Below are positions 8,214 to 50,312 of a DNA stretch of 64,000 bases, one piece after another. Position 1 is the stretch's first letter. Each line of letters opens with the position of its first letter. The position numbers were made by a program, and so were the translations under genes. Source of the stretch: Massalongia carnosa (taxonomy: Eukaryota); assembly GCA_965645245.1 (NCBI GenBank), contig OZ287084.1:1054001-1118000 (forward strand), read 5' to 3'. The notes below the pieces were generated by a model, which worked only from the letters and a program-made list of their open reading frames with translations, was not told where the DNA came from and ran no database searches.

Positions 8214-9812
8214 CTAGCCGGCCCATATGACCATATCGCGGAAGGTTTTCCGTACAGACTGATGGACAAACTCGAGGCTCTTCAGCAAGGACCACTCATC
8301 CTCGCCGGCTGGAAGAAGCACCTAGAAACTCATCCCGATAACGTGTACAAGCAGGCTATTTTTGATATTATTCGGTATGGGGCCAAGATTGGGTATACCG
8401 GCCCAGAACAATTCATCCTCAGCCCCAATCTGCTATCAGCAAAAGAAGCTCCTGATATACTCACTAAAGATGTCGAGGAGCAGAGGGATAAGGGACGATT
8501 GACGCGAGTAGATATTCTTCCCTCCAAGTTCATATCATCCCCATTAGGTCTCGTACCCAAATCAAATGGTACATGGCGCCGTATCCATCATTTATCTCAT
8601 CCTGAAGGATCGTCGGTAAATGACTTCATCCCTCAGGAATGGGGGGCCTTGGAATACCCCACATTCGATGACGCTGTCGCCAAAGTAAGAAAACAAGGAA
8701 AAGTGTGCATATTAGTAAAAAGGGATTTCTCCGATGCCTTTCGCCATATACCCGTGGCTAAAAGCGACTGGTGGTTGCTGGGATTTCAATGGGATAATGT
8801 TTACTGGATGGAGCGCTTTCTACCTTTCGGCTTGCGCACGTCTCCTTTTCTATTCGATTTGTTTGCAAAGGGGATAAATTGGATGTGTTTACAAAATGAG
8901 CTTCATTATCTAGATGATTTCATGGCAGTTTGCCGCACTAATCCCGAAGCGGAAGCTTTCACTGGGTACTTCTTCGATCTTTGCAAAGACCTTGGAATCG
9001 CAGTCAACGAAAAGAAAAATATAACTGGTCATGTAATCGATTTCTTAGGCATTGGATTGGATACAATGCTCATGAAAGCATGGCTACCACCAGAAAAACT
9101 GCAGAAAGCCAAAGACCTCGTCAAACAGGCCTTGCAAAAATCATCGATTAGAAGGGAGGAATTAGACTCCTTGGTGGGATTTTTGTCATTCGCAGCTAAA
9201 GTGGTAGTGCCAGGGAGAGCTTTCCTCCGACGTCCTTTTAACGCAAAAGCCATATCTCGTGGGCGTCATATTCATATTAACGAGAATATCAAAGCCGACC
9301 TGCAGTGGTGGCATCTTTTTTTACCTAAATGGAATGGCATTCGCATGTTAGACCGTCCTCGCGAGACATTTCGTCTTTGGACGGACGCATCAGGGTACGG
9401 CATTGGGGCCTACATCCTAGTGGAGGATCATACCAGTTTTACCATGCCCGCTGAGCATGCACTTTCTGAACGTTTCACGTCTCGGCTTAGGCCAACTCAC
9501 ATCAATGTCAAAGAAATGACAGCGATATTACACGCTTTGCGTAAATGGCCCCCCCTTTGTGCAGGGAGCCATGTGATTTTCCACTGTGACAACTTTGCTG
9601 TCACGTCAGGAATAAGGAAATCATCTATTCGTGGAAACGCTATGCGGCCTCTTCGGGCAATCGCAATGCTGACCGCTATTCATGATATTCGGATTGAAAT
9701 ACGTTGGATCCCAACAAAGTCAAATGAGCTCGCTGACCTCCTATCGCGGGGCAAATTGGAGAAAATCGCTAACAAATGGCCCAATTTACAGGAACTTCTA
9801 CTCAAATCCTAG
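8214..9812 (+). CDS. Ngaro pol: reverse transcriptase and RNase H
   Basis: Open from 8214 (first ATG at 8262). Motifs LPFGLRTSP, HYLDDF, WTDASG, INVKEM, HCDN and NELADLLSR. Confidence 0.92.
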   Translation, partial: LAGPYDHIAEGFPYRLMDKLEALQQGPLILAGWKKHLETHPDNVYKQAIFDIIRYGAKIGYTGPEQFILSPNLLSAKEAPDILTKDVEEQRDKGRLTRVDILPSKFISSPLGLVPKSNGTWRRIHHLSHPEGSSVNDFIPQEWGALEYPTFDDAVAKVRKQGKVCILVKRDFSDAFRHIPVAKSDWWLLGFQWDNVYWMERFLPFGLRTSPFLFDLFAKGINWMCLQNELHYLDDFMAVCRTNPEAEAFTGYFFDLCKDLGIAVNEKKNITGHVIDFLGIGLDTMLMKAWLPPEKLQKAKDLVKQALQKSSIRREELDSLVGFLSFAAKVVVPGRAFLRRPFNAKAISRGRHIHINENIKADLQWWHLFLPKWNGIRMLDRPRETFRLWTDASGYGIGAYILVEDHTSFTMPAEHALSERFTSRLRPTHINVKEMTAILHALRKWPPLCAGSHVIFHCDNFAVTSGIRKSSIRGNAMRPLRAIAMLTAIHDIRIEIRWIPTKSNELADLLSRGKLEKIANKWPNLQELLLKS

Positions 9813-10806
9813 CACGCGACCCTCCCGAAAGCTGGTATAGCGAAATACCTCTATCCCGACCAGCAGCTAGATACCTGTGGTGGGGCTTGGCAGTTAAAAC
9901 CCGCAGTCTGTATGACACAGGGAGAAGAAGCTATGTAACACACTGCAGAATATCAATGAACGCGACTCCATTTCCAGCAACCATACAGACCTTGTCATCT
10001 TGGATAGCGATGCTAGGAGAACAAAAATACAGCCCAAAACCATCAAGGCCTATCTAGCCGGAGTTCGGTCCAGCCAAATCGACACGGGCTTTGAGGATCT
10101 AGAAACGTTTCACCATCCCGTACTAAATAGAATCATTGCCAGCATAAAGCGAAAGAATGGCGAAGCCGACAAGAAAGAGCGAATGCCCATTACGAAAAAC
10201 ATACTCGTTCGTTTAGTGAAACGATTGGACTTAGCCGACAACGCGCAGGCCACTCTACACGCAGCATACTGTCTGGCATTCGCAGGATTTCTTCGCGCAG
10301 GCGAATTTACGTACACTATCAGAGACCTAACAGACCCAAGCTTCGAATCATGGCATTTAACTAGGAAATCCGTCCACTTAGAAGCAGATAAGCAGTTCCT
10401 CTCCTTCCCGGCGTCCAAAACCGACACCTTTCGTCGAGGCATTACGCTAACGATAGCCGCATTAGGGGACGAGGCCTGCGCGGTAAAATCCCTTCGTAAT
10501 TTGATCACCCGGTTTCCACTACCTGCAACCTCCCCTTTATTCTATAAACAAAAGGCTTTCACACGCGAATATTTGACCACCGCGATGCGATCAGGGCTTA
10601 AGAGCTTAGGCATAACAGGTAATTATTCAGGTCACTCTTTCCGAAGAGGTGCAGCGACGACGGCCAAGGAAGCCGGTCTTAGCGAGAACGACATTCAATT
10701 ACTAGGCCGGTGGAAGTCAGACTCCTACAAGCTTTATATCCAAACGCATCAATCCCACATCTTAGCCACCTCACGCCGTTTTCAACACCCTCCCCCAGCC
10801 TCCTAA
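9776..10806 (+). pseudogene. Ngaro tyrosine recombinase (one frameshift near 10021)
   Basis: ORFs 9776-10057 and 10000-10806. Catalytic motifs GFLRAGE, SKTD, HSFRRG and GRWKSDSYKLY. Overlaps the end of pol. Confidence 0.9.
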
Positions 10807-11403: not shown

Positions 11404-11896
11404 TATAAAATCTCCTCATAATCTCGGATTCGGAGGTAGCACTGCATAGTAGTTTTTCAAAGTAGGCTGATAAAGGATTTAAAGTTTATACTCTTTGTCA
11501 GAGTAATTATTTGATATCAATTTTGTTCGCCTTCAAAGTGAGTTGATTGATTCTTTATTCTGACTTTGGAAAATGATACGCGAAACCGCTTGTTTTTGCC
11601 GCAAAATCACGCTGTTTTCCATTTCTTTTCTCGTAATAGGCTAGAATAACTAGAAAGAAGCAGGTCACGAAAATCAGTCAATTAAAAATAGCTAGACAAT
11701 TGAGATTTTTAGCAAAAGATAGTCTTTCAGATAGTGTTTTGTTGGTAATTCAGCTTTGTAAAACACTTCCCGAACCACTGAATTATACTCTCTTCTGCGA
11801 CAATTTCTTTACCAGCACGAAGCTATTCAAAGCTCTTCGATTACTAGGAATTGCTGCATGCGGGATAGCCAAAAAAGGCCTTGGAATTCCTGCGGA

Positions 11897-12491
11897 TTAT
11901 TATTAATTCATTTATTTTTTATTAATTCATTAAGCGTATGCATCCTAAGGATATGACGCTGTGACTGCTATTTATGTACATAAACAATAGTCAGGAAGTG
12001 GAAACCTGGCGCCCAGGGTCAAACCACTCCCTTGTTCCATGTTGAACGCAACGAGACCGTCCTTCTACCACGCGGTGCATACACCCAGATCTTCAAGCGC
12101 TAGGAATCCTATAGACTCGATGAACTAGACAGTGTATTTCCACACGTTCGACGAACGTTCTCTCTCTTTAAACGTTTTGATTCAATGGAGAAAAGACTGG
12201 CCGTGATCGAGGGCAGATCGTGGTGTCGTATAAATGAAGGTGTGTAAGTGTGGCCATTCTAAATGAATGGGCTTTTTCGATGAGGTGAAAGGCTTCCGCC
12301 TGAGGGGTGTGGCCATTCCGAATGAATGGGCTTTGTATGTGTGCCTTCGAGGTGACGAATGATCAGTAGAGACGTTGATCGTTCAAATGGCCACCGAGGT
12401 GGACTTCCGCGTTGGCGATGATCAGATATTGGCCACCTCCGAGGAGGTGTTGATAGCCTGCACCACGTAGAGGTTTCTGACCCAGCAGGCC
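11897..12491 (-). mobile_element. SINE-like non-autonomous non-LTR element (595 bp)
   Basis: 13-bp TSD GAATTCCYGCGGA (11884-11896 and 12492-12504), A-rich tail, 3' end similar to the LINE family, no credible ORF. Confidence 0.9.
12420..12491 (-). ncRNA. HDV-like self-cleaving ribozyme (predicted) at the SINE 5' end
   Basis: P1 GGCCUGC/GCAGGCU, P2 GGUCAGA/UCUGAUC, P3 ACC/GGU with L3 UCUACGU, P4 CACCUC/GAGGUG, J4/2 GCCAA. Confidence 0.85.
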
Positions 12492-12668
12492 GAATTCCCG
12501 CGGAGTTGCTGATTATGCGGGATGTTGCGTTCAAAGCCAAACATTGAGGACTTCAGGCCAGTACAGTTGTCGAAGATGAGATGCTTTGTATGGGCTGGAT
12601 GAATAACAACACCGTTCAAATCATGACTACTCGTCATCATCCTCGAGATCTTGACAGTTCGTACTATT

Positions 12669-13204: not shown

Positions 13205-13240
13205 TAGACATAGACACCGAAGGAGGCCTCCCCTATAGCG

Positions 13241-14482
13241 ATGGCACGATCCACAGGAACCGGGATTGAACTCCCAACTCGACGAGAATCGATGATCCCG
13301 ACGACCCAGGAGACAGATGACGAATTGGAGGTAACGGAACCTCTGATGATCGAGAACTTTCGACAACTGAAGGCATGGATGAAGCACGACGGCCAGGCTG
13401 TGTCCGACATGCTTCAGGAACTGAAGAAAGCCTATAACGACTCCATCGACCGAAGCAATCTCGCCACCGACATGGCCGAAAGCTTCCAGAAAAGAATGAA
13501 CCAGCTAGAAGGAATTGTCGAATACCAAAAGGAAGAACTGAGGGAAGCACGTCGCCAGGCTTCCGAAACACCAACCGACAAAACACGAGAGCAGTCTCGC
13601 CCTCATTCTCCTTCTCGGACACCAAGCACTCAACGGACCGACGGCACCAATGACAAGAAGAAGTCCATGAAGCTCCCTGATCCTCCCATTCTTACTGATG
13701 GAAAAGAGATTTCCATTGACCATTGGCTGACGAAGATGCGGAGTAAATTAGCGGCCAACGAGGACCATATGCCTACGGAAGTGCTGAAGAAGGCGTACGT
13801 AGAGAACCGAGTCGGAGGAGAAGCCATGGGGCACCTCGAACCCCGACTCCGAAAAGGTGCAATTCGCCCCTTTGTGACGGCCGAAGAAATGTTCGACCAA
13901 TTGGAACGCACCTACGGCGACCCCAACCGAAAACAAAACGCCATGAACAGCTTCCGAGCCCTCAAGCAAGGAAGCAAAGACTTTAACACCTTTTGGGCTG
14001 AGTTCCAGCGCCTAGCAGCTGAGTTAGAGCATAACGAGGCCACGCTAATCAGCGAGTTGAAGTACAAGCTTTCCTGGGAAATGTCACGACAATTGGCCAC
14101 CGGCGACCAGGCACCAACCGACCTCTATGCGTTTGCGCAAAAGTGCCAACGCTTATACCAGGACCTCAAGGACTCGGACCGGAGTAAGGCTAGTATGGAA
14201 CGTTATGCTGAAAGACGTTCTAGCACGGCTCCGACCCCCAGCGCCATGGCCACGAGAACGACGACTTCCACCAAGACCTACGTACCACCTCGACCCTTCA
14301 CCAGCACTCCGACCACTAGAACCACCTCTTACATGACGGAGGAGGAGAAGGAACGACTGACTAGAGAAGGTCGTTGTTTCTTTTGCAAAGAAACTGGACA
14401 TATATCGAGGGACTGCGAGAAGAAGACTCGGCCAGCGAAAGTGCAAGAAATCGCTGAGGTTGCCGACTCGGGAAAAGAATGA
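13241..14482 (+). CDS. Gag (retrotransposon capsid and CCHC zinc knuckle)
   Basis: 413-aa ORF with KLPDPP, LKQG and CFFCKETGHISRDC. Confidence 0.95.
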   Translation: MARSTGTGIELPTRRESMIPTTQETDDELEVTEPLMIENFRQLKAWMKHDGQAVSDMLQELKKAYNDSIDRSNLATDMAESFQKRMNQLEGIVEYQKEELREARRQASETPTDKTREQSRPHSPSRTPSTQRTDGTNDKKKSMKLPDPPILTDGKEISIDHWLTKMRSKLAANEDHMPTEVLKKAYVENRVGGEAMGHLEPRLRKGAIRPFVTAEEMFDQLERTYGDPNRKQNAMNSFRALKQGSKDFNTFWAEFQRLAAELEHNEATLISELKYKLSWEMSRQLATGDQAPTDLYAFAQKCQRLYQDLKDSDRSKASMERYAERRSSTAPTPSAMATRTTTSTKTYVPPRPFTSTPTTRTTSYMTEEEKERLTREGRCFFCKETGHISRDCEKKTRPAKVQEIAEVADSGKE

Positions 14483-17400
14483 CCTCCACCGAAGGCGCGG
14501 ATGGAGGTGAACCTTTGTTGATTTCATCTAGCTGTTTACCAGGCGATTTGTTTACGGATGAACCTCTAATCATACAGTGTAGGCTAGGTAACAGCGAAGA
14601 AATGAAAGTAATGGGACTGTTGGACACTGGTGCTACAGGACATGCTTTTATTGATGAAGTAACAGCGCGTGAAGTTTGTGAAAAGCTTCAAATCTCCCCT
14701 CAGAGACTGACACGACCGAAACCGGTGAAAGATTTTGATGGTAAACGGGGTAAAGACATCACCCATGCCATCTACCCCACCCTGACCGTACAAGACCACA
14801 AAGAGACGGTGGCGCCTCTTCTGATCACCACACTAGGCCAACATAAGATGATCCTGGGCAAACCATGGACGAGGAAACATGGAGTAGTTATCGACATGGC
14901 CCTGGACAAGATAATCTTCTGGCCCGGCCACTGTTCCCATCCAGGCGCACCCAAACCACTCCAGAAGCAAGAAACGACGAAGACCCCGAAGACTACAGAA
15001 CCCAGAAAGGTTATGAAGATATTGACACGGACCCAAGAAGAAAAGACAGAACAGAAAGAACCCGAAAAGACCAAACCAGAACAGTCTATGCAGTCGAATG
15101 TGGTAGCTGACAAGGCTGTTGTTAGACTAACAGAAAGACTAACAGACTTTCCATCTACCGAAACTGTAGATGGACATTCAACCGAAGATAAGCCGATAGA
15201 GATGGCCATGATAGGGGCTGCTGCGTATCGACTGCTCTCCAGACGAAAGGACGTCGAATTATTCTCCATTTCCTTGAAAGACATCGAGTATCAGCTCAAC
15301 AAAGAAGACCGCCCACCGACTGACCCGAAGACGGTAGTTCCCCCGGAATATCACGAGTTTTTGGACGTCTTTTCTGTTGAACAAAAAATCAACCAGGCAT
15401 ACGGCAGCGGGATGCAGGAGAAGAGGGTCTAGGGCTATCAAGGATAGGCAAAGAGAAGTGCTTGGCAAACGTGATGCAGGTACTCCGTATTTCCAGTGAA
15501 GATACTCCAAATTTAGCTATCTGCTGCACTGAATTCTGAACGACTGAATAGCTAAATTACATGAGGAATCATCGTCTCTTTATACTGCTTGAGGGCCTCC
15601 ATCTCGGCCTATATCAAATGCATGAACCTGCTTCCTTTGAACCTTTTCAGCTGGGCAAAATACACCTCGTTGCTGACCGGAGACACCGAGACACTCAGTG
15701 ATCATGAACAGCTGAATTGCCTCCGAAATGTAGCATTCTTGCTGCATACTTTTGCCTCCTCGTAGTTGCCGAAGTCGTGCCGATATCTGAAGCTTTTCGC
15801 ATATAGCATATGATTGCCTAAACTGGAAATTAGTAAGCAGGAGGCAAAAGAACCTCGGTCGCAAATATTCAGGTATCTCGGCAAATTCCAATATTTTCCA
15901 AGGCCGCATCGGACACGCTGGCACCTCACCGACCCTATGACCATCGTATTATTCTGGAAGGAGGAAAAGATCACGGGCATAGCCCACTTAGGAGTATGTC
16001 GCAAAGAGAGCTCGAATTCGTCAAGAAATACCTCGAGGACAACCTTCGAAAGGGGTTTATCGAGGCCAGTCACGCTGCTTGCTCGTCCCCGATTCTTCTA
16101 GCCAGAAGCCTAATGGAGGACTTCGCTTTTGTGTCGATTATCGACGGTTGAACCAGTTGTCAAAGAAAGACCGCTATCCAATTCCCCTGATAGGAGAAAC
16201 GCTGGCCCAGCTGAAAGAGGCCAAGATCTTTTCGAAAATCGATATCCGACAAGCGTTTCACAAACTCCGAATGGCTATGGAATCTGAAGATTTGACCACG
16301 TTTAACTCCCGTTTCGGTGCTTATAAATACAAGCTATTACCGTTTGGACTTTCCGGAGGACCATCGACCTGGCAGCACTTTATCAATGACGTGTTGTTTG
16401 AATATCTGGACAAGTTCTGCACGGCTTACCTAGACGACATCTTAATTTATAGCAAGAATCTGAAAGAACATCGGGAGCATGTACGGGCCGTTCTATCAAG
16501 ACTTCGAGAAGCAGGACTCCAAGCGGACGTGGACAAATGCGAGTTCCACGTGACGGAAACGAAATATCTGAGACTGATTATCGGTGTTGATGGCATTCGT
16601 ATGGACCCCGCCAAAGTCAAGGCCATTCAGGAATGGGAAATTCCGACCTGCCTACGGGAGGTTCGTTCGTTCATTGGTTTTTGCAATTTCTATCGCCGGT
16701 TCATCAGAGGATTTTCCAAGATCGCCAAACCGCTGAATGCGTTGACAAAGAAAGAACGAATATTCGAATGGACCCCCGCATGTGAAAAATCTTTTCGAAC
16801 TCTACAGAAACGAATTGGAGAAGCCCCAATCCTGATACATTTCGATCGGAACAAACAATGCTATCTGGAAACGGACTCATCAGATCATGTCAATGGCGGC
16901 GTGCTCTCCCAGATCGGTGACGACGGAGAGTTACACCCGGTGGCTTTCTTTTCGAAAATCATGAGCCCGGCCGAGTGTAATTACGAAATATACGACAAGG
17001 AACTGCTAGCGATAATTCGCTGCTTCGAGCAATGGAAACCCGAACTGGAAAGTACGGACTTGCCAGTGAAGATCTTCACCGATCACCGAAGTCTAGAATA
17101 TTTCATGTCAACTAAGAAACTAACTAGACGACAAGCTCGCTGGGCGGAGTTCCTCTCGGAGTTCAATTTTGTCATTACATATCGACCCGGAAAGAAGAAT
17201 GAGAAAGCGGACGCCCTGACTCGAAGACCAAATGACAAACCCCAGGACGATGATGACGAAAGGCAGCAACACCAGCTGCAGACACTGTTACCCCCTGAAA
17301 GATTTGAACTTCAACCAATCGAAGAAGCAACGGAACCGGAAGCAACGGAATCAGAAGAAACCCCCGACCAGGACCCACCGACCCTGGACGAACGAATAAA

Positions 17401-18869
17401 ACAGGAAAACCTGGAAGATGAACTTTGCACCAGAATCAGGAAAGCCATAGAAAGAACCGACACCACCGACGACTCGTTACCCGACATAAAGAATTGCATC
17501 GTGGAAAACGGACTGTTATATAAGCAAAAGCGCTTATGGGTCCCGAACAAGAAAGAAACGATCCTAGAAGTCGTTCGGATAATACACGACCAAATAGCAG
17601 TAGGACACCCCGGAATCGCCAGGACTAGTCAGATACTCCGTAGTCTCCCGAAATTACTATTGGCCAAACATGAACAAGGACATCCATCGCTATGTACGAA
17701 ACTGTCATGTTTGCCGGCGCGCAGAAGCACCTCGGGACAAGTACAATGGACTACTGAAGCCACTGCCCATCCCAGAGAGACCATGGAAGGATATCACCCT
17801 CGACTATGTGACCGGACTCCCGAAAAGCAAAGGAAATGACGCTATCCTGATGGTAGTGGACCGGATGTCAAAGGAAAGACATTATATCCCGTGCACATGC
17901 AGCGAGGAAGGCACAATAGCAGAGGCCACAGCGAAACTCCTTATCGACAATGTATGGCGCTATCATGGACTCCCGAACAGCATGCTATCCGATCGAGGAC
18001 CGCAGTTCGTCTCAGCAGTATGGAAGGCCTGGTGCAAAATTCTCGGAATTACAGCAAAACTGTCAACAGCCTATCACCCAGAAACAGACGGACAAAGCGA
18101 AATCGCGAATCAGGAAATGGAGCGTCACCTCCGGAGTTTTGTGAACTACAGCCAGGATGACTGGACGGACCTGCTTCCAATGGCCGAGTTCGCTGCCAAC
18201 AACGCACCCTCAGCCACTACAGGGCTTTCACCGTTCATGGCCACCAAAGGGTATGAGCCAAGAATGAGCTTCGATCCGACCGAGCTTTCCGCAGACTCCA
18301 CTAAGGAAAGACTAGCCAACGAAAAAGCCAGAGCCATTACTGACGACATGAAAAAGGTATGGGACTTTGTTCAACAAAACATGAAGAAATCCCAAGAACG
18401 ACAAGCAATAGCGGCAGACCGGCATCGAACTGAATTCTCGTACAGCGAAGGAGACATGGTGTGGTTATCCACAAAGAACATCAAGACGGAGCGTACCGCC
18501 AAAAAGCTGGATCACAAAATGATTGGTCCCTACAGAGTCAAGAAACTAGTAGGATCTTCCTGCCAATTGGAACTCCCACCGTCAATGAAAATCCATGATG
18601 TCTTCGACACCAGCCTACTTCGGAAGGCCTCCGACGACCCACTTCCAGGCCAGATTAACGAACCACCACCGCCAGTAGTGGTTGAAGGGAACGAGGAATG
18701 GGAACTAGATGACATCCTGGATGCACGAAGACGCTACCGAAATATTCAATTCAAGGTCAAATGGAAGGGAATAGACGAAGATTTGACATTGTATGATGTA
18801 GAAGGCTTCGAAAATGTAAATGAGATAGTGGAAGAATTTTACAAACGAAACCGAAGAAGCCAACGATGA
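14479..18869 (+). pseudogene. Pol (protease, RT, RNase H, integrase, chromodomain), disrupted
   Basis: Motifs LLDTGA, YLDDILI, ETDSSD, H-H-C-C, SDRGPQF, TDGQSE, GPY and KVKWKG. Broken by a solo LTR (15375-15893) and frameshifts near 16105 and 17636. Confidence 0.95.
15375..15893. mobile_element. Solo LTR (519 bp) inserted in gypsy pol
   Basis: TGTTG...CAATA with TSD TTTTC (15370-15374 and 15894-15898). Removing it restores EFLDVFSKAASDTLAPHR. Confidence 0.85.
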
Positions 18870-21363: not shown

Positions 21364-24140
21364 TTGCTTCAAACATCATATTATATTTTATTCAGCGTCA
21401 TAGGACTAAATGAAGGAGAAATTCCGAGTGTTTCAGACAAATCCCCCGTTTCAGTAAAGCAACATAGGATAAATAGCAAACGCACTGTTAAAAGCATCTT
21501 AGCTGACATTCCTTCTCCTCTTTCGAGTTACAAACCCATTTCAATTGATGATAGACCTCTAAGATCGCTGGTGAATGGTCTTGTTGATACTCCTCTTGGA
21601 TTTTATCAGCTCTTTATTACGACTCAGCTCTGTCGGACTATCGCATATCACACGAACATCAAGGCTCACGATCATACAGAGAAAGAAAAGGAGAATAATC
21701 ATCGCCCATGGTATGACATTATTAGACCAGAAATTGAGGTTTTTTTGGGCATTATTTTGTTAATGGGTATGGATCATGCGCCTGCCACGGAAGATTACTG
21801 GAATCAATGCTCCGACAAGCCCATTTTCCTATCTATTTCACAAGCCATGTCCCTCGTACGATTTCAACAAATCAAGAGATTTTTAAAGCTTAATAATAGA
21901 CGTACGGAACCTCCGCGCATGGGCAAAGGAGTCGATTAGTGGAAGAAGTTGGAACCTCTTGCTACTGATTTTCGTTAGGCCTCGTTGAAGTACTTTCAAC
22001 CAGGAAGCATCATATCAATTGATGAGCAGCTTATTAAATTCGAAGATCGATTAGGTCATACTCTACAAATAACTTCAAAGCAGGCTGGAAAGGGGTTTAA
22101 AAAATATAGTCTTTGTCAGAATAACTACTTGATATCTTTTTTGTTTGCCTCCAAAGTTAGTATCTTTCTAAAAAATTAAATCTCGTTTTCCCTTTTTGAT
22201 CTTTGAATCATGATCTCTTTCGGACAAAATTCCATGAAACATTGTGTTTTTGCTGTAAAAACCCTCTGTTTTCTGTCGCTTTACCCAACATAACTGCAAT
22301 GATTAACACGTATCAGGTCATAAAAATCAGTCAGTAAAAAACCGCTAGACAACTGGGCTTTTTAGCAAAGGATGGCCTTTCGGATAGTACTTTGCTGGTA
22401 ATTCAGCTTTGTAAAACACTTCCTGAACCACTGAATTACACTCTTTTCTGCGACAACTTCTTTACCAGCACAAAGCTATTCAAAGCTCTTCGATCACTAG
22501 GAATTGCTGCATGTGGAACAGCTAAAAAAGGCTCTGGATTTCCTGCGAAGTTGTTGGCTCTGCGGGATATGGCCATTAAATCCAAACATTGGGACTTCGG
22601 GCCAGTACGACTGTGGATGAGGTGCTCTGTTTGGGATGGGTAGACAATAATACCGTTCAGTCGATGACTACTCGTTATCATCCTCGGGAGCTTGATGACT
22701 CGTACTATTTACATCCGCTTAAAAGGCATAGAATTCCAGAAGACTCCGTCCAGCCAATTATACCCATACTATACTATCCCTCAATATAGGCTCATATTAT
22801 TCTGCTGCCTAATCAAACACCTTCATGGCCTTTAGGCCTACCGATTCCCGCACCAGTCAGAGAATATACTTCACATAGGTGGGTCAGATATAAATGCTCA
22901 GCAGAGAGCGGTTTATTCTTATCAACGCCGAAGCGATCGATATTGGTAGCCACTGTTTATTTTTTTGTTAGATGCTGCTGCGCTTAATGCATACAAGCTT
23001 TGTCACGAAATCAGGTCGAGGGCAAGGGCAAAGGCAAGGTGGGTTGATGGTCAAGCTTATTGATTGAGTCTATAGCTATGAATCTAGGCTAGGCTAGGTT
23101 GGCTATTCAAGACGTTCGACAAAGAATCAGAACTTCCATGATTCGACTTCTTTCTTATATCTTTGTCCTCCCATATTTATCTTTCTAAGGTGGCGGCGAA
23201 TGATGTCTAGTCAGTGCGATGATGAATGAGGGGCATTATAGCGGCAATAAGCACGATGGGGTCAGCGAGGAGACGAGAGATGTCAAACATCAATGCGAAG
23301 CTATTAGACATGATAATAGTCGAAAGACGGGAATAAATCATCAATGCGAGGCTGATTAATGATCAGTAATCGGCGAATTCGAAGAATGATATGAGGGTCC
23401 CGAAGGCATAGCACGACGTCCGTGAGTAGTCATCAGATCAAGGCACGTGATAGAGGCACGTGGTGAGGTCGGAGGCATTTCATGACAAGCTTTATCTAAT
23501 TGATGACTTCAGAACAGAAGGAAAAAAACTCACTCGTACGGATTTTACTCATTATCTTGCCCTCAGTCTGATGAAGAATCGGTTAATTAGCAAGGCTACC
23601 ATCGGTTAGATAGTCAGACTACAACTAGTATAGGCATCTATCGTGAGCCTCGGGAGGTGCCTTGCAAAGTGCCTAAAAACAGCAGATATAGGAGTCAAGG
23701 TCTGATCGTCAGGGTGCCTAAATAAACAGATATGGGCGGACAAGGTCTGACCGTTTAGGCTTCTAGATATGACTGTTTTGTGATTACTCTATAAAGCAGA
23801 CAAATAGTCTATATAGATAATCAACTTCAATGACAATCATGCTACTATACCTAAAAAGCGAATTTATATTTCATAGAATCCCGCTGAACAAACCCGACGA
23901 CATGAGTCAAAGATAAGGATTCAGACCAACTCTGAGCCCGTTATATTTATCTAGAGAAGAAGCGGAAATGCGAGCCCTGCAATAAAACAAGGCCCTCCAA
24001 AAGAAAAGGGGAGCCTTTGTCTGAAAGAGACGCTAATGGCAGGAAAAGAAAGCAGCGAGGTTCTCAAACAAGATAGGGGTGTAGAGGATGTCATCTAATC
24101 AGACCTTGTTGTAAAATCAGGCCTGCTGGGCGGCAATATA
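21364..24140 (+). pseudogene. piggyBac-like DDD transposase with one intron and Cys-rich C-terminus
   Basis: ORF pieces 21364-21939, 21985-22155 and 22317 onward (DEQ, DNFFTS, WVDNN). Intron 22156-22316. CEPC...CRGC near 23970-24095. Several stops; ends approximate. Confidence 0.85.
23001..23487. mobile_element. Solo LTR (487 bp)
   Basis: TGTCACGAAAT...ATTTCATGACA with TSD AGCTT (22996-23000 and 23488-23492). Confidence 0.9.
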
Positions 24141-41800: not shown

Positions 41801-43320
41801 AATTTTACAAGCAATGAAATGGGTCTATAAATTGTCTAATAATAATATTTTATCGAACTTGGAAAAAACGATTTGGATTTTTTCTGATAGTATAAACGCG
41901 ATAAACGAAATTCATAACTTGACAAATCATATTTTCGCAAGACAAATTCGAAAGCTCGCAAAACGCTTATTTGAAAGCAATTATCAGGTGATTTTGCAAT
42001 GGGTTCCGAGTCATTCGAATATTACCGAAAACGAAATTGCAGACAAAATAGCAAAGACGGGCCATAATCAAATCCTAGTCGAGTCCTCGGCTATAACATT
42101 TGATTATGTAAAAGATCAAATAAATCAAAATATGCTAACCACATGGACGAATCAATGGCAACGATGCAAATCAAAAGGCAAATACTACGAGAAATTCGAA
42201 ATGAAACCTGGCATATCGAGATTTTATTATTTATCAAACAACTGTTCCAAATTGATATTTGCCACTATTATGCAATTAAAATTCGGACACGGCTATTTTC
42301 GATCATATTTACATCGATTGAAAGATTATAATTCGTCAAAATGCTCAAATCGATGCAATCAACGACAAACGCCAGAACACTTGTTATTAAATTGCATTCA
42401 CTATTTCGATGAAATTCAAAACATGAAACAAACCATCGATACAACGATCAACTTGAACCGCAACTTTTGATACACTATAACTTTAACAGTCAATTGAGCC
42501 TCTATTTCTCAGTCATTTGCGCTCCTCCAGAGTTAAAACGCTCTCAGATTGAGTGTAAGAGAGCTCTAGCAAAGCTCCAGCAGAGTTTTTCTGCTGGTCG
42601 CACGCGACCGACGTGATAAAGCGCGCTCTAGAAGTTGGAAAAAACAACAAATACCAACAACCTCACCAAAAATCGCTCTTTTTTCTTGTTTTCTTCTGTT
42701 CTGTTGTCGCATGACCTTCAATTATTACTATAAAAATTATCTACAAAAATTATCTACTCTCGCGGGACTGTACAACAACTGTCGCGACGTCAGAGTCTTC
42801 TAAAGTTCATTCCTCATTTAAGGTTACGGGAACTTCCGCAAGCACAAATTTTCATAGCATATTTCACGTATAATTTTTGCACATTCCATTTTCGGCTTTA
42901 TAGATCTTCGTTGAACGGCCGGTCAACAGATCACTGAAAAGAAGGGGAAAAACGTCTGGAATAGGATTATACCAAAGGTCCTGTTTCAGATTAATCAGAA
43001 TAGGAAGTCTCCTATTGTCTTACATTGCATTAAAATTTATCTTTATTGAAAAAAGCAAAAAAAAACTTTCATTATTTTCACCTATTGTAGTGTCTGGTAA
43101 AGGGTTAAATAAGACTTACTGCCTTAGCGAGGAACGGTCTATTTTAACCCGATTAGGATTTATTTGACGCGTTATAGTCAAATAAATAGGGATAGGAAAG
43201 AAAGAGTCATTTGACCAGTAAACAAACAGGTGTAAATTCTATTCTGACTAGTACGTCCGGGGAAAGTCAGAATAAATTATTTGGTGGCGATAAAAGGGAT
43301 ATTGCAAAGGCAAAAACACT

Positions 43321-44979
43321 ATGCTCAATCGAAGATTTAACCCGATAGGTCATAGACCAAATCGATTGATACCAACAACTCCTCCCCCAGGCCCCCCTCC
43401 ACAACATCTATGGGTCCCCCCGAGTACTCCCCCGTGCCCCCCCCGAACCGACTCCCCCACGCCATCTTCGGTAGCGATAATTGGGAGCAACCCCCTAACC
43501 GTAGAATCCACGGAGGCCATGGACCAAACGCGAGAATTTTCGTCCGCACCGTCCACACCCACCCCAAAAACGAAACCTTTTGTCGCGCCATCTGGTGAAT
43601 TCAGTACCAATCTGCCCATGCCATCATTGAATTCTGATATTCGACTGAGTCCACCAATTAAACGCAACAAAAGACGAACATTTGACGAACATTCGATTGA
43701 GAGTCAAGAAGTCATCAATCGATCAAAATCGATTCAACTATTGAATACGGCAAAAAATGCATTATTAGAGTCATTCGTAATAGATCAAAACCCCGAAACG
43801 GCTATGGTCATCGATCACGTCAATTCTCTACTGGCAAAGAAATCGATCAAGCCAAAAGCAACGTTAGAAATGATTGATTGGAAATTGAATAGGGTGCTAG
43901 AACAAACTAGCCAAATTCCAGAAACAAAGAGACAATCGGTGCATCCTATACAGACAAAATCGAAGGGAAATTCAAATGGAAATTCGAATTTGACTCAAAA
44001 CGTCAACCCAGAAATTCGGAGCGAAACCGCCGGAGTCCCAGGGCCGCAGGTCAACGATACAGCTAGAACATGGAGCCAAATGCTCGGAAAAGCGACTGTC
44101 AATTCCGAAAATTGGACTACCGTTCCTCGATCCAAAAAAACAAACAAGAACAACAACAATAATTCGAATGCGAACAAATTCGATAATACTGACGATTTCA
44201 AGGCGATCAAATCTCGACGATTGATAATCACACCGAAAGCTCAAATCGGCGATATCGATTCACTGTTACTTCGAAACCAAATCAATTCGCTGTTTAAAGA
44301 CGCGAAATTGACTATCGTTGTTAACACGGTCGAAAAGTCCAAAAAGGGTCAAAACATCGTTCTGACTACTAGTCCTGATAACACTGCTGAAGATTTATTG
44401 AACAATAAATCAATATGGGAGCATTTATTCGACCCACGAACAGTTCGAAAGGACGAATCGTGGTTCAAAGTCGTTGCACACGGTGTAAATATTGCAACAT
44501 TTGATGAAAACATGCAATATTTGCAAGACGAAATTCAAAAGTTCAATTCGAACATGCAATTATGCGATGTTCCCAGATGGCTAGCACGTGATCGTCATAA
44601 CAAGATCAAATCATCCGTTGTTTTGACATTCAATGATCGAAATATGGCCTTGAACGCGTTAAAAGGAGTCAATATCGCGGGCCGACATTGTGACACGGAA
44701 ATATTTACCTCCGTTCGTCCAAACACACAATGCATTAATTGTCAAAAATTTGGACACAAGCATTATCAATGCAAAAGTCAATCGAAATGCAGCATATGTG
44801 CGCAAAACCATGAAACACGCAATCATGAATGCACAACATGCAAGTCAAAAATTGCTTGTGCACACGCCGTCGTCAAATGCGCGAATTGCAACAAGAATCA
44901 TCAATCCAATGATGAAAATTGTGAAATGGTTATATCGTTAAATGTTCGAAAATCGACTGACGAATTAGCCGCTTTGTAA
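43321..44979 (+). CDS. LINE ORF1, gag-like nucleic-acid-binding protein
   Basis: 552 aa with Cys/His knuckles CINCQKFGHKHYQC, CSICAQNH and CANCNKNH. Confidence 0.93.
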   Translation: MLNRRFNPIGHRPNRLIPTTPPPGPPPQHLWVPPSTPPCPPRTDSPTPSSVAIIGSNPLTVESTEAMDQTREFSSAPSTPTPKTKPFVAPSGEFSTNLPMPSLNSDIRLSPPIKRNKRRTFDEHSIESQEVINRSKSIQLLNTAKNALLESFVIDQNPETAMVIDHVNSLLAKKSIKPKATLEMIDWKLNRVLEQTSQIPETKRQSVHPIQTKSKGNSNGNSNLTQNVNPEIRSETAGVPGPQVNDTARTWSQMLGKATVNSENWTTVPRSKKTNKNNNNNSNANKFDNTDDFKAIKSRRLIITPKAQIGDIDSLLLRNQINSLFKDAKLTIVVNTVEKSKKGQNIVLTTSPDNTAEDLLNNKSIWEHLFDPRTVRKDESWFKVVAHGVNIATFDENMQYLQDEIQKFNSNMQLCDVPRWLARDRHNKIKSSVVLTFNDRNMALNALKGVNIAGRHCDTEIFTSVRPNTQCINCQKFGHKHYQCKSQSKCSICAQNHETRNHECTTCKSKIACAHAVVKCANCNKNHQSNDENCEMVISLNVRKSTDELAAL

Positions 44980-47900
44980 TGGCAGGACAGCATTCGTTGA
45001 CAAACATCGAAAATACACAAAATGTTAAATTTATTCAACATAATTGTGCAAAGTCAACGAATGCAATGATATCGTGTTTGGAATATGCTTTATCAAATCA
45101 AATTGATATTGTTTTGTTTCAGGAACCATGGACACGAGATCAAAAAACAATATCACATCCGTCATTTACATGTATTATGCCTAAAATAGAGACTTATCGC
45201 TCGAGAGTAGCTATATTTGTCACAAATGGCAATTCCAAACTGCAATGCACGCCTAGAACGGATCTTATTGACGATTCCGATATGCAAATTATTGAAATTA
45301 CAATTGATGAAGTTCGAAAAGTGCAGATTTTCAATATTTATAACGAAAAAAGTCAAAGTGATCGAGAAACATACACGATCGATCGACTTTTAATCCAATT
45401 ACAACCAAAATCAACTGATCAATTCGTCATCTGTGGAGATTTCAATGCACATCATAACTGGTGGAATTCGAAAATTCAACAAGCAATTCGATCAGAAAAT
45501 CTTGTCAAATGGTTGAAATTAAACAGGTGTAGCTTGATAAACACACCTGACTTATGTACATACTACGCCCATTCTGGAAGTTCTTCATCTGTTATTGATT
45601 TAACTTTTGCAAATTCTAAAATCGAAAATGCAATTACAAATTGGTCAATCGATGAAAACGCAGGCACAGGTTCTGATCATGAAGTCATCCGATTTGAACT
45701 AATCGCATCTTTCAAAAACTTGACGTCACATGCAACCGCATTATCGAATAAATACAATTGCAATAAAGCTGATTGGAATAAATTCGCGAAGTATCTAGAC
45801 GAAAATCCAACCATCTACGAATCACAAGTTCAAAGTTTATTGAATAATCATCAATTCGACGAATCAGCGATATATTTGCAAAACGTTATCAAAAACGCGG
45901 CTGAAATGTTTATTCCGAAAACGAAAATTTGTGCAAAATCGAAAAATTGGTGGTCGCATGATTTAACTGAACTTCGAAAAACCATGTGCAGACATCGTCG
46001 AGAATGGAAGAATTATCCGTCCGATTTTAATCATCGGACGTTTAAACATAGTCGAATCGAGTATTTTCATGCAATTCGAAAAGCAAAACAACAAACATGG
46101 TTGACTTTTCTTGAAAATGCAGCAAATAAAGATGTATTTACCGCGTATAAATACACTAAACCGCGAATATTCGAAAAAATACCGCCGATTCTACATGAAA
46201 ACAAGCTAAATGTTCAGTTTGATGACAAATGCGATGCATTTGTGTCAGCAATGTATACAAAAAACCCATTTATTGACGATAATGATAAAGATTTATCAAA
46301 TCAAGACAGCGTAAATGATGATAATTGGCCAGATTTGACCGAAAACGAGTTGAAAAATGCGATTAGTTTATTTAATCCGAAGAAAGCATGTGGACCTGAT
46401 GCAATCAATTTTACAATTGTTCAAAAATCGTTTCAATCGTTGAAAAACGTGTTTTTCATGAGTTATTCGAAATTCATTCGAATCGGTTATCACCCGTTAT
46501 GCTGGCGGACAGGATTCGGTGCAGTTCTGAAAAAACCTAATAAATCGGACTATTCGTTTCCAAAATCATATCGAATTATCACATTATTAAATTGTCTTGG
46601 TAAAATTGCTGAGAAAATCGTTGCAAATCGACTAGCCTACTTCGGCGAAAATTCGAATTTACTCGATATCGAACAGATGGGCGGACGCAAAAATCATTCT
46701 GCAATTGACGCAGTAATGAACGTTGTTCATGATATTGAAATTGCAAATAGAAATAAAAACGTCTTATCATGTTTATTACTCGATGTCAAAGGCGCATTTG
46801 ACTTTGTCTCGATTAATCAACTGCTAAATGTTATGAAAAAGCTGAAATTATCTCGCATAATAATTCAATGGGTCAAGCATTTCATGACAAAGCGATCGAT
46901 CAATTTGATATTTGATGAAAATTTAAGCAAAACATATAATGTCGAATCAGGAATTCCACAAGGCTCACCAATCTCGCCTATTCTATTTCTGATTTACATT
47001 CGTCACTTGTTTCCGAAAATACGAATGAAATTCAATGCACATTCTCCCAGTTTTATTGACGATGTTGCAATATATGTCGAAAATAAAACTGCAAAACAGA
47101 ATTGCAAAGAAATCGAAATCATAGTCAAAACGGCCTTTGATTGGGCCGCATCGAATAATGTCAAATTTGATGACGATAAATCCGAGCTGATTCACTTCGA
47201 AAAGACAAGAAATGTATCGAAAGACACATTGGAATTACCAAACGGGACAGTACTAGAACCGAAAAATGTAGTCAAATGGTTGGGCGTCTGGTTAGACCGA
47301 AAACTAAATTTCAAAAAACACGTCGAAACGCGGATCTCTTCTGCGAATCGATCGTTTTTTGCAATTCAGAATTTGATGAAATCCGAATGGGGTCTGAAAC
47401 CGACCGCAAGCAGACAGCTCTATATGTCATGCATTATTCCTATTTCGGACTACGGCTCAGAAATTTGGTATAATGGTCAAAAGAAATATGAAAAACTATT
47501 TCAGAACCTACAAAATCAAATGATTCGAAAGATTTTAGGAACTTTCAAAACCACACCTATTCAGGCGATGGAAATTGAATCACATGTTTTACCAGTTAAA
47601 CTTCGATTATTAATGAAAAATCAAAAATACGCAATTCGATTATTGAAGATTGCCGAAAATAACCCGATTTGTCAAAGAATTCCTAACACATATTCGATAA
47701 AATTCGAAAATATCGGTTTTGACACAAGTTTATGGAACAACAAATATGCCGAATGGAACGAAGACGAAAAACAAACAAATAAACGACATCCTAGTCAGCT
47801 TATTCGCGTTCTTCATTCCGTTTCCGATATAGTTCACAAAACTGATGAATTTGAACAATCAAATCATTTTATTAAACCTTGGAAATCGCCTTGCAAAATC

Positions 47901-48992
47901 AAATTTCAAATCGAAAATACAAAGGAATCTGCTAAATCAAGTTATTATTCGACCTTATCCAAAATTAAATCAATGAACTCCGATAAATCCCGAGTTTTAC
48001 TTTATACAGATGGATTGAAAATCGAATTTGCAACGTCTGCATTCACATTTGCGCCAGTTATAAGGAATTGGAGTAATATTATCAAAAATTTTGATCGATT
48101 TATCGAAAAAGATTGTCTGATCAAGTATCATACGATTTCGAAAAGCTGGAAATTAAGCAAAAAGTCAAGCATTAAAAATGCTGAACTGCATGCGATTTTA
48201 CAAGCAATGAAATGGGTCTATAAATTGTCGAATACTAATATTTTATCGAACTTAGAAAAAACGATTTGGATTTTTTCTGATAGTATAAACGCGATAAACG
48301 AAATTCAGAACTTGACAAATCATATTTTCGCAAGACAAATTCGAAAGCTCGCAAAAATCTTATTTGAAAGCAATTTTCAGGTGATTTTGCAATGGGTTCC
48401 GAGTCATTCAAATATTACCGAAAACGAAATTGCAGACAAAATAGCAAAGACGGGCCATAATCAAATCCTAGTCGAGTCCTCGGCGATAACATTTGATTAT
48501 GTAAAAGATCAAATAAATCAAAATATGCTAACCACATGGACGAATCAATGGCAACAATGCAAATCAAAAGGCAAATACTACGAGAAATTCGAAATGAAAC
48601 CTGGCATATCGAGATTTTATTATTTATCAAACAACTGTTCCAAATTGATATTTGCTACTATTATGCAATTAAAATTCGGAAACGGCTATTTTCGATCTTA
48701 TTTACAGCGATTGAAAGATTATAATTCGTCAAAATGCACAAATCGATGCAATCAACGACAAACGCCAGAACACTTGTTATTGAATTGCATTCACTATTTC
48801 GATGAAATTCAAAACATGAAACAAAATATCGATACTACCATCAACTTGAATATGTTGTTTAATACAAAAATCGGAAATGACATTTTGATTAAATTCATTG
48901 TCAATAACAAAATCGCGACAAGAAAATGGATACTAGGTCAGCTTGATGACGAGATTTTCGAAACTGGAGGTTGGGGAGAGATCGAACAGTAA
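44979..48992 (+). CDS. LINE ORF2: APE endonuclease, reverse transcriptase, RNase H, CCHC
   Basis: 1337 aa with FQEPW, GDFNAHH, GSDH, GIPQGSPISP, FIDD, YTDG, IFSDS, NEIAD and QTPEHLLLNC. Confidence 0.96.
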   Translation: MAGQHSLTNIENTQNVKFIQHNCAKSTNAMISCLEYALSNQIDIVLFQEPWTRDQKTISHPSFTCIMPKIETYRSRVAIFVTNGNSKLQCTPRTDLIDDSDMQIIEITIDEVRKVQIFNIYNEKSQSDRETYTIDRLLIQLQPKSTDQFVICGDFNAHHNWWNSKIQQAIRSENLVKWLKLNRCSLINTPDLCTYYAHSGSSSSVIDLTFANSKIENAITNWSIDENAGTGSDHEVIRFELIASFKNLTSHATALSNKYNCNKADWNKFAKYLDENPTIYESQVQSLLNNHQFDESAIYLQNVIKNAAEMFIPKTKICAKSKNWWSHDLTELRKTMCRHRREWKNYPSDFNHRTFKHSRIEYFHAIRKAKQQTWLTFLENAANKDVFTAYKYTKPRIFEKIPPILHENKLNVQFDDKCDAFVSAMYTKNPFIDDNDKDLSNQDSVNDDNWPDLTENELKNAISLFNPKKACGPDAINFTIVQKSFQSLKNVFFMSYSKFIRIGYHPLCWRTGFGAVLKKPNKSDYSFPKSYRIITLLNCLGKIAEKIVANRLAYFGENSNLLDIEQMGGRKNHSAIDAVMNVVHDIEIANRNKNVLSCLLLDVKGAFDFVSINQLLNVMKKLKLSRIIIQWVKHFMTKRSINLIFDENLSKTYNVESGIPQGSPISPILFLIYIRHLFPKIRMKFNAHSPSFIDDVAIYVENKTAKQNCKEIEIIVKTAFDWAASNNVKFDDDKSELIHFEKTRNVSKDTLELPNGTVLEPKNVVKWLGVWLDRKLNFKKHVETRISSANRSFFAIQNLMKSEWGLKPTASRQLYMSCIIPISDYGSEIWYNGQKKYEKLFQNLQNQMIRKILGTFKTTPIQAMEIESHVLPVKLRLLMKNQKYAIRLLKIAENNPICQRIPNTYSIKFENIGFDTSLWNNKYAEWNEDEKQTNKRHPSQLIRVLHSVSDIVHKTDEFEQSNHFIKPWKSPCKIKFQIENTKESAKSSYYSTLSKIKSMNSDKSRVLLYTDGLKIEFATSAFTFAPVIRNWSNIIKNFDRFIEKDCLIKYHTISKSWKLSKKSSIKNAELHAILQAMKWVYKLSNTNILSNLEKTIWIFSDSINAINEIQNLTNHIFARQIRKLAKILFESNFQVILQWVPSHSNITENEIADKIAKTGHNQILVESSAITFDYVKDQINQNMLTTWTNQWQQCKSKGKYYEKFEMKPGISRFYYLSNNCSKLIFATIMQLKFGNGYFRSYLQRLKDYNSSKCTNRCNQRQTPEHLLLNCIHYFDEIQNMKQNIDTTINLNMLFNTKIGNDILIKFIVNNKIATRKWILGQLDDEIFETGGWGEIEQ

Positions 48993-50312
48993 AATCAGAA
49001 ACGATTTATGCTGAAACATTCACGAACTTACAAAGACAAATTTTAAAATCGATATTCTTCGATTACTATAGGTTGTTACTAACACGTAGTAAAAATGGGG
49101 AAAAATTGACAATACATAGATGGGTTATAAAGGGTTGATTTATTTGTAATAGAGAAACATATCCTAAAATAGTTTAGTGTCATAACCTTAGGTTGAATAC
49201 ACTTAATGAATAAATAAAAAAAAATAAAAAAACGATCAACTTGAATATGTTGTTTAATACAAAAATCGGAAATGACATTTTGATTAAATTCATTGTAAAT
49301 AACAAAATCGCGACTAGAAAATGGATACTATGTCAGCTTGATGACGATATTTTCGAAACTGGAGGTTGGGGAGAGATCGAACAGTAAAATCAGAAACGAT
49401 TTATGCTGAAACAGTTACGAACTTACAAAGATAAATTGTAAAATCGATAATTTTCGATTACTATAGGTTGTTACTAACACGGAGTAAAAATGGGGAAAAA
49501 TTAACGATACATAGATGGGTTATAAAGGGTTGATTTATTTGTAATATAGAAACATATCCTAAAATAGTTTAGTGTCATAACCTTAGGTTGAATACACTTA
49601 ATGAATAAATAATAAAAAAAAGACGCGAAATTGACTATCGTTGTCAACACGGTCGAAAAGTCCAAAACGGGTCAAAATATCGTTCTGACTACTAGTCCTG
49701 AAAACACTGCTGAAGATTTATTGAACAATAAATCAATATGGGAGCATTTATTTGACCCACGAATAGTTCGAAAGGATGAATCGTGGTTTAAAGTAATCGC
49801 ACATGGCATAAATATTGCAACGTTTGATAAAAACATGCAATATTTACAGGATGAAATTCAAAAGTTCAATTCGAACATGCAGTTATGCGATATTCAAAGA
49901 TGGCTAGCACGTGATCGTCAAAACAAGATCAAATCGTCTGTTGTTTTGACGTTCAATGATCGAAATATGGCTTTGACCGCGTTGAAAGGTGTAAATATCG
50001 CGGGAAGGCACTGTGATACGGAAATATTTACCTCCGTTCGTCCGAATACGAAATGCATCAATCGCCAAAAATTTGGACACAAGCATTATCAATGCAAAAA
50101 TCAAGCGAAATACAATATATGTGCCCAAAATCATGAAACTCACAGTCATGAATGCACAAATTGCAAATCAAAGATCGCCTGTGCACATGTCGTAGTCAAA
50201 TGCGTCAATTGCAATCAAAATCATCAGTGAAATAATGAACGATGTGAATTTATTGCATCGTTAAACGTTCGAAAATCGACTGACGAATTATCTGTTTTGT
50301 AATGGAAGGACA

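Follow-up and report, generated by a model that had tools for sequence, protein, structure and literature searches.

HDV-like ribozymes have been described at the 5' ends of a varied set of retroelements that includes R2, the R2 SIDEs, L1Tc, baggins and the RTE elements (PMC6765202), and active ribozymes lie at the heads of the NARTco and SIDER elements (PMC4035085). Two of these systems are among the closest to the element that we analyze here. The NARTc, NARTco and SIDER elements of the trypanosomatids, whose partners are L1Tc and ingi, are short and non-autonomous, and their first ~77-94 nt are HDV-like; a cut at +1 frees the element from co-transcripts, and the LINE mobilizes it in trans (PMC4035085, PMC3383444). 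Their Pr77 head is common to the LINE, and the elements themselves are truncated LINEs. The R2 SIDEs of Drosophila have no ORF; their 5' end is set by the cut that an HDV-like ribozyme located there makes in the co-transcript, while the LINE protein binds them at the 3' end (PMC3414825, PMC6765202). They are internal deletions of R2 and are site-specific in the 28S rDNA. Canonical SINEs are likewise short, non-coding, high-copy and TSD-flanked and take their 3' end from a partner LINE, but their head is derived from a tRNA, 7SL RNA or 5S RNA.

Ribozymes of the HDV class are also known from fungi. From 26 fungal species Li and Breaker (2017) described 230 variant HDV ribozymes, and they demonstrated cleavage for two (PMC5640933); these variants are of the HDV class and occur in ascomycetes, and constructs from P. 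chrysogenum and A. niger cleave. Their gene associations were called "widely variable", and the word retrotransposon is absent from the text of that paper. In the full-text literature that we searched, we found no paper in which a self-cleaving ribozyme is connected with a SINE of fungi or lichens or with a Tad1-type LINE. The design of a retroposon headed by a ribozyme is thus known in animals and trypanosomes and has apparently not yet been described in fungi.

In this study we examine an element carried by a stretch of 64,000 nt of the Massalongia carnosa assembly (hereafter the window), which a first-pass annotation had described as a SINE headed by a complete HDV-like ribozyme whose cleavage site is the 5' end of the element. 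That overall reading was supported on all of its predictions that we examined, which concerned Rfam, the insertion, the copies, the tail and the LINE leaders. Judging from sequence, we consider it probable that the element is a high-copy, non-coding and non-autonomous non-LTR retroposon of an ascomycete, whose HDV-like head would cleave itself at G1 and whose tail, borrowed from a LINE, would allow it to be mobilized in trans.

The element occupies positions 11897..12491 on the minus strand, a length of 595 nt in this copy, and the core that is characteristic of the family extends from ~12491 to 11915. It is bordered by a 13-bp TSD, TCCGC[G/A]GGAATTC, whose upstream copy (12492..12504) and downstream copy (11884..11896) differ by a single mismatch. 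The duplicated segments are thus 12504-12492 and 11896-11884, and the G at 12491 comes directly next, so G1 adjoins the TSD as had been claimed. Since the base that follows the downstream TSD is a C, the G at 12491 is unambiguously the first inserted base. A paralogous and uninterrupted target site was found by BLAST and alignment at 22537..22549, also on the minus strand. In a BLAST comparison against the window, the flank 12669..12492 matches 22710..22537 with 76% identity and the flank 11894..11456 matches 22547..22074 with 74% identity; the two matches are collinear, and hence the second locus lacks 12491..11897. The 13-bp TSD and the empty site at 22537-22549 together identify a real insertion. 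The sequence into which the element was inserted is itself another repeat, and its paralogue at 22074-22710 is 74-76% identical. Among the public contigs described below, one from run X1 with a loose end at 12495 resembles this host repeat without the insertion and is like an empty site.

The coding capacity of the element is negligible, with 44 aa for the longest ORF that lies wholly within it. Its head had been said to be unrelated to any tRNA, and ARAGORN detected 0 tRNA genes in the window; at E values up to 10, no tRNA-, 5S- or 7SL-like sequence and no Rfam family besides the HDV-type ones was found on the strand of the element. A canonical SINE in the strict sense was therefore rejected as a description of this element, given the absence of a pol III-type head in the ARAGORN and Rfam searches. 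Behind the head, the body (11988..12419) contains two direct repeats of 28 nt, at 12248-12275 and 12307-12334, which are 93% identical and 59 nt apart; each of them has a short palindrome inside it. The element ends in an A/T-rich tail (11897..11931), in which a unit of 16 nt is present twice in this copy.

When it was re-read, the minus strand from 12491 to 12420 had exactly the letters that the first-pass annotation had given, and the nested double pseudoknot proposed there can be built from them, as all of the proposed pairs are standard when the 72 nt are threaded onto the fold. The predicted fold (12420..12491, minus strand) would be cut 5' of the G at 12491. The 5' strand of P1 (12485..12491) pairs with 12455-12461; all 7 of these pairs are standard, and a G1.U37 wobble opens the helix. 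The 5' strand of the pseudoknot helix P2 (12476..12482) pairs with 12420-12426, where again all 7 pairs are standard. A single unpaired A separates P2 from P3, which consists of 3 bp closed by an L3 of 7 nt (12462..12474), and these 13 nt are identical to the consensus of RF02682. P4 is a hairpin of 6 bp with a CUCG loop (12434..12449). In the same threading J1/4 reads AUCAA and J4/2 reads GCCAA, and P1.1 is reduced, as had been noted, to one U-A pair. The order of the helices, P1-P2-P3-(P1.1)-P4, is canonical for the HDV-like class with a P1.1 of only 1 bp, and the core letters of HDV are all present: the P3/L3 block, the CAA of J1/4, the C and the subsequent AA of J4/2 and a purine at +1 with its wobble. 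The C of J4/2 at 12432, which had been put forward as the candidate catalytic base, falls on model position 60 in the alignments to both RF02682 and RF00094, where it is aligned to the C of GGC.AA in the two consensuses. By comparison with the functions of HDV residues, which goes beyond the Rfam alignment itself, this position-60 C would be catalytic. In the MFE fold of the full RNA of 577 nt, P4 is kept and the 3' strand of P1 is paired elsewhere; nested-fold programs cannot represent a pseudoknot, and P1 was not recovered in this whole-element fold. Because the MFE fold diverts the 3' strand of P1, folding of the ribozyme would need to be co-transcriptional.

The fold of the head appears to be of the type of the F. 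prausnitzii ribozyme family (RF02682), with which it shares the 13 nt of P3-L3-P3, the L3 of 7 nt, the 1-nt spacer that separates P2 from P3, and GC.AA in J4/2. The two differ in J1/4, which is AGGCAA in RF02682 and ATCAA in the element, and as a result of this replacement P1.1 of the element loses a C-G pair. They also differ in setting: RF02682 is bacterial, and the example given in a review lies upstream of glmM (PMC6765202), whereas the element is a transposon in a eukaryotic host. One trait of the fungal variants of PMC5640933, an additional nucleotide that separates P2 from P3, is also present in the element. Their consensus places a C-G at the cleavage site and has an E-loop within P4, whereas the element has G.U at the first position and a plain 6-bp P4. 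It is by description that these variants are set apart from the element, and the two sets may overlap.

The Infernal search that the first-pass annotation had recommended gave a divided result. The positive part is that RF02682 aligned over its full length, positions 1-74 of 74, to exactly 12491..12420; the negative part is the score, which at 29.9 bits is under the gathering threshold of 44. The HDV ribozyme model RF00094 scored 25.1 bits at the same head against a gathering value of 50. Both of these models are narrow, and such sub-threshold scores lower the case for membership in RF02682 or RF00094 and not that for membership in the fold class. A scan of the window at the Rfam gathering thresholds gave zero matches, and at E values up to 10 no other match of HDV type was found in the whole window, in which the RF02682 alignment is the top match. 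Its E value is 6.5e-4 on 301 bases and 0.14 for the whole window against 4227 families, which by simple arithmetic amounts to ~3e-5 per window for one family.

The significance of the fold was also evaluated with descriptors. One based on structure alone (P1 of 7 bp, P3 of 3 bp, P2 of at least 6 bp and P4 of at least 5 bp) had 51 start sites in the window and was dropped as evidence on account of this lack of specificity; the fold alone is no more than chance would provide. A second descriptor added the letters common to both Rfam consensuses, namely.CC/UC..CG in P3-L3, CAA in J1/4 and GC.AA in J4/2. It had 1 match in the window, at 12491 on the minus strand, and 0 in 300 dinucleotide-preserving shuffles, so that the fold together with its core letters is more than chance. 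This second descriptor was written with the sequence already seen, and for this reason the result of the Rfam covariance model, which is independent of the post hoc descriptor, is the cleaner statistic. Could an ordinary retroposon nonetheless have come by accident to resemble HDV in its first 72 nt? The 51 structure-only matches and the whole-window E of only 0.14 speak for such an accident. Against it, the full-model match begins on the very base that the insertion independently marks as the first of the element, the 13 nt identical to the RF02682 core are accompanied in the Rfam alignment by the CAAC and GC.AA blocks in their proper places, no shuffled sequence among the 300 matched, and the head is invariant where the body is variable. 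We regard a chance resemblance as hardly credible.

Comparison with HDV-like ribozymes from metagenomes provides a second view of the head. Metagenome contigs scanned with 17 specified core letters yielded at least 118 loci, and those listed are a mixture of bacterial-type ribozymes and chance matches in coding sequence. A perfect P1 of 7 bp is present in 49 of the 118 listed loci; the other 69 have at most 6 of the 7 P1 pairs and are mostly coding sequence, from which it follows that the helices are not simply a by-product of the core letters. None of the 118 listed loci is a copy of the element, and the sole BLAST match to it is a segment of 26 nt in the locus L109. Under a strict parse, 38 distinct metagenomic ribozymes drawn from the matches listed have the register of the element's head, its P2 included. 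In this parsed set of 39 sequences (the 38 listed metagenomic ones and the head) the spacer between P2 and P3 is 1 nt in 33, P4 opens with a C after CAA and closes with a G before the GC.AA block, and the 3' strand of P2 comes 7-8 nt later. The helices themselves are diverse, with 13 forms of P1, 19 of P2 and 33 of P4 among the 39, and the pairing is maintained. Two of the parsed loci, L069 and L109, have the same ATCAA J1/4 as the element, and the form of P1.1 with one pair thus recurs in combination with unrelated helices. L037, L069 and L109 are all candidate HDV-like ribozymes of metagenome contigs that have the ATCAA J1/4 and whose P1, P2 and P4 are unrelated to those of the element.

Parts of the stretch that holds the element were found in 20 public runs from 12 studies; several of the runs are labelled lichen metagenome, and contigs from four of them were aligned to this stretch at 80% likeness. 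In run X1, from which 2092 pieces were aligned, the summed word depth is ~5e5 inside the element, with values of ~3e5 to 1.3e6 within 11922-12497, vs ~3.7e3 in both flanks; such a summed contig depth is not convertible to a copy number. The prediction that 5' ends should stack at G1 was borne out, with loose ends of X1 contigs at 12491 (at least 13 contigs), 12492 (at least 5) and 12493 (at least 6), and beyond these ends the flanks are unlike, with an agreement of 0.41-0.51 in the 24 contigs listed. In X6 a contig of 7074 nt contains positions 11915 to 12491 of the element, and in X8 one of 2051 nt contains 11919 to 12492; each copy has 10 differences and unlike flanks on both sides, and both copies stop after the first 16-nt unit of the tail. 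X10 provided one contig only, of 172 nt with an end at 12491, which carries no weight here. Full-length copies in three differently labelled organisms thus start at G1, within the 1-2 bases in either direction that can be matched by chance, and no copy that runs upstream of G1 was present among the contigs listed. The X6 and X8 copies, with their 10 differences per ~575 nt, could belong to close relatives or reflect a recent horizontal spread. One contig of X1 joins 12491 to 11921 and hence represents a pair of copies arranged head to tail, which could have arisen by insertion into the A-rich tail or by template switching at the RNA's 5' end.

Variation among these copies is unevenly distributed. 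All 36 of the listed variant positions with a share of at least 5% lie in the body, between 11988 and 12408, and there are none in 12409-12491 or in the 3' tail. If variants were spread evenly, the probability of finding none in the 72-nt head would be 0.0065, that of finding the 66 nt ahead of the A-rich tail free of them would be 0.010, and that for the head and the 66-nt tail together would be 3e-5. For the X6 copy, and likewise for the X8 copy, 9 of the 10 differences could be located, and all of these fall in the body; the tenth could in either case fall in the head. The conservation of head and tail beside a drifting body fits selection on the source copies. Since the head has no variants at a share of 5% or more, there is no covariation among the copies of the element, and an invariant head argues neither for nor against the pairings.

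The invariance of the head and the coincidence of copy ends with G1 would be expected equally if G1 were a promoter-defined start of transcription, and the head might be conserved as an internal promoter or as a binding site for the LINE protein, with a fold that is inactive or vestigial. There is a precedent for a dual function in L1Tc and NARTc, in which the same 77 nt are both promoter and ribozyme (PMC3383444), and the weak P1.1 and the sub-threshold Rfam score are in keeping with an inactive fold. A head that is a promoter only, however, has to be reconciled with the presence, in the correct register, of all the core letters and four helices of a ribozyme class some of whose members are validated, with the 0 descriptor matches in 300 shuffles and with the failure of ARAGORN and Rfam to find a tRNA-, 5S- or 7SL-like head. 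We judge it distinctly unlikely, and retain as the more probable the reading in which the head is a self-cleaving ribozyme. As to transcripts, the aligned runs are contigs, which cannot show the 5' ends of RNAs; two RNA runs of lichen metatranscriptomes have a 0.04 share of the sampled words, which is a measure of word sharing alone and not of expression.

The window is rich in LINEs that encode the domains of an APE endonuclease, a reverse transcriptase and an RNase H, and also contains pieces of Ty3/Gypsy elements. The candidate partner of the element is a full-length LINE of Tad1/I-like type at 42457..49231 on the plus strand, with an approximate start, whose ORF1 (43294-44979) is followed by an ORF2 (44961-48992) that encodes the endonuclease, the RT and the RNase H. 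The nearest named relatives of the LINE ORF2 are ascomycete proteins with ~32% identity, and unnamed clusters of 204 and 126 members match it at 96% and 87%, respectively. The full-length LINE (~42457-49231) is inserted into an older copy (36138-42457), toward the 3' side of the latter; the two are 88% identical. The last 388 nt of the full-length LINE are repeated directly behind it (48837-49224 vs 49232-49619, 96%).

It is at the 3' end that the element and these LINEs come together. Positions 11960..11907 of the element align to six LINE 3' ends in the window with 79-87% identity, and RNAalifold predicts that the element and the LINEs have in common a hairpin in two parts, with 10 pairs, immediately ahead of the A-rich tail. 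This stem-loop lies at 11933..11960 on the minus strand of the element and at ~49176-49203 on the plus strand of the full-length LINE. Two of its pairs have undergone compensatory changes between LINE and element (U-A to C-G, and A-U to U-A), and the comparison suggests that the 3'-end structure of the LINE is preserved in the element. Such a structure is what allows a SINE of the stringent type to make use of the reverse transcriptase of a LINE. Apart from the last ~50-66 nt, a BLAST search of the element body gave no match to the LINEs of the window.

The 5' ends present a different picture. Four LINE starts could be placed, at ~42457 (the full-length LINE), ~36138, ~34088 and ~33883, and the four leaders align together. 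The first-pass annotation had seen no ribozyme in the LINE leaders of the window, and this is upheld by alignment and BLAST, in which 4 of 4 are unrelated to the head of the element; no Rfam match of HDV type is present at the leaders at E values up to 10, and the structure-only descriptor has no sense-strand start at the four LINE starts. The SIDE/NARTc type of element, in which the 5' ribozyme is common to the partner, was rejected for this locus on the ground that 4 of 4 window LINE leaders are without it. The NARTc, NARTco and SIDER elements differ from the fungal one in the kingdom of their hosts and in sharing their head with the LINE, whereas the fungal element has in common with its LINE only the 3' ~50 nt, and 4 of 4 LINE 5' ends in the window lack the ribozyme. 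In contrast to the site-specific R2 SIDEs, it is dispersed among unlike flanks, and its partner is a LINE of the APE type with RNase H.

An element of this kind could nevertheless be the internally deleted derivative of a LINE located outside the window with the same ribozyme at its 5' end, from which the head would have been inherited instead of being gained on its own. This proposal bears on where the element came from and can stand together with the main mechanism. The well-studied cases, the R2 SIDEs, NARTc and NARTco, all arose as deletions of LINEs (PMC6765202, PMC4035085), and the search for a LINE with a ribozyme covered only 64 kb of the genome. The leader of the partner LINE, however, is unrelated to the head in the 4 aligned copies, neither an Rfam HDV-like match at E <= 10 nor a sense descriptor match occurs at the LINE starts, and the body is without a BLAST match to the window LINEs outside its last ~50-66 nt. 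These observations make a LINE-derived origin rather unlikely.

The window contains further retroelements. RT and RNase H domains are encoded by an ORF at 8214-9812, and the ORF that follows it, in the stretch to 10806, has a weak match to Phage_integrase (tyrosine recombinase) with an E of 1.5e-4, which is below the Pfam cut-off; the whole of 8214-10806 may be a DIRS-like retroelement. On the other side, 13214-18869 is the interior of an LTR retrotransposon of Ty3/Gypsy type, with a zinc-knuckle gag, RT-RNase H and an integrase with an SH3 domain.

The life cycle that we envisage for the element would begin with its transcription, from outside promoters, as part of longer read-through RNAs. 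The ribozyme would then cut immediately 5' of G1, as its fold and the ends of the copies suggest, and the upstream RNA would be discarded. The product would be an RNA that begins at the first base of the element and retains the whole ribozyme; because the released RNA would keep a complete ribozyme, each new copy should again be capable of trimming itself. The LINE-derived 3' stem-loop and the A-rich tail would in turn recruit the LINE ORF2 protein in trans, and target-primed reverse transcription by this protein would generate the TSD of ~13 bp. Of the later part of this scheme, what the window itself shows is the tail in common with the LINE, together with the duplication of the target and the empty site.

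The feature that could make this element a variant of the known ribozyme-headed systems is that its head is not common to the partner LINE. One might speculate further, tentatively and with some doubt on our own part, that it represents a chimeric class of fungal SINE in which the pol III head is replaced by a ribozyme module that was acquired separately from the partner LINE; such a promoterless element would live on read-through transcription and self-trimming, and its near-identical copies would reflect a recent and possibly horizontal spread among lichen-forming fungi. If the head cleaves, the element would show that a SINE can unite a ribozyme head with a LINE tail that arose separately from it. 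At least one genome contains the family in great abundance, which makes it relevant to the annotation of TE-rich fungal assemblies, in which SINE finders that are based on tRNA would miss a family with a ribozyme head. Should the head prove to cleave, a likely biological setting would also be provided for at least some of the HDV-type ribozymes of fungi, the variety of whose gene associations had gone without an explanation, and the principle that a ribozyme sets the 5' end of a promoterless retroposon would reach the fungi as well.
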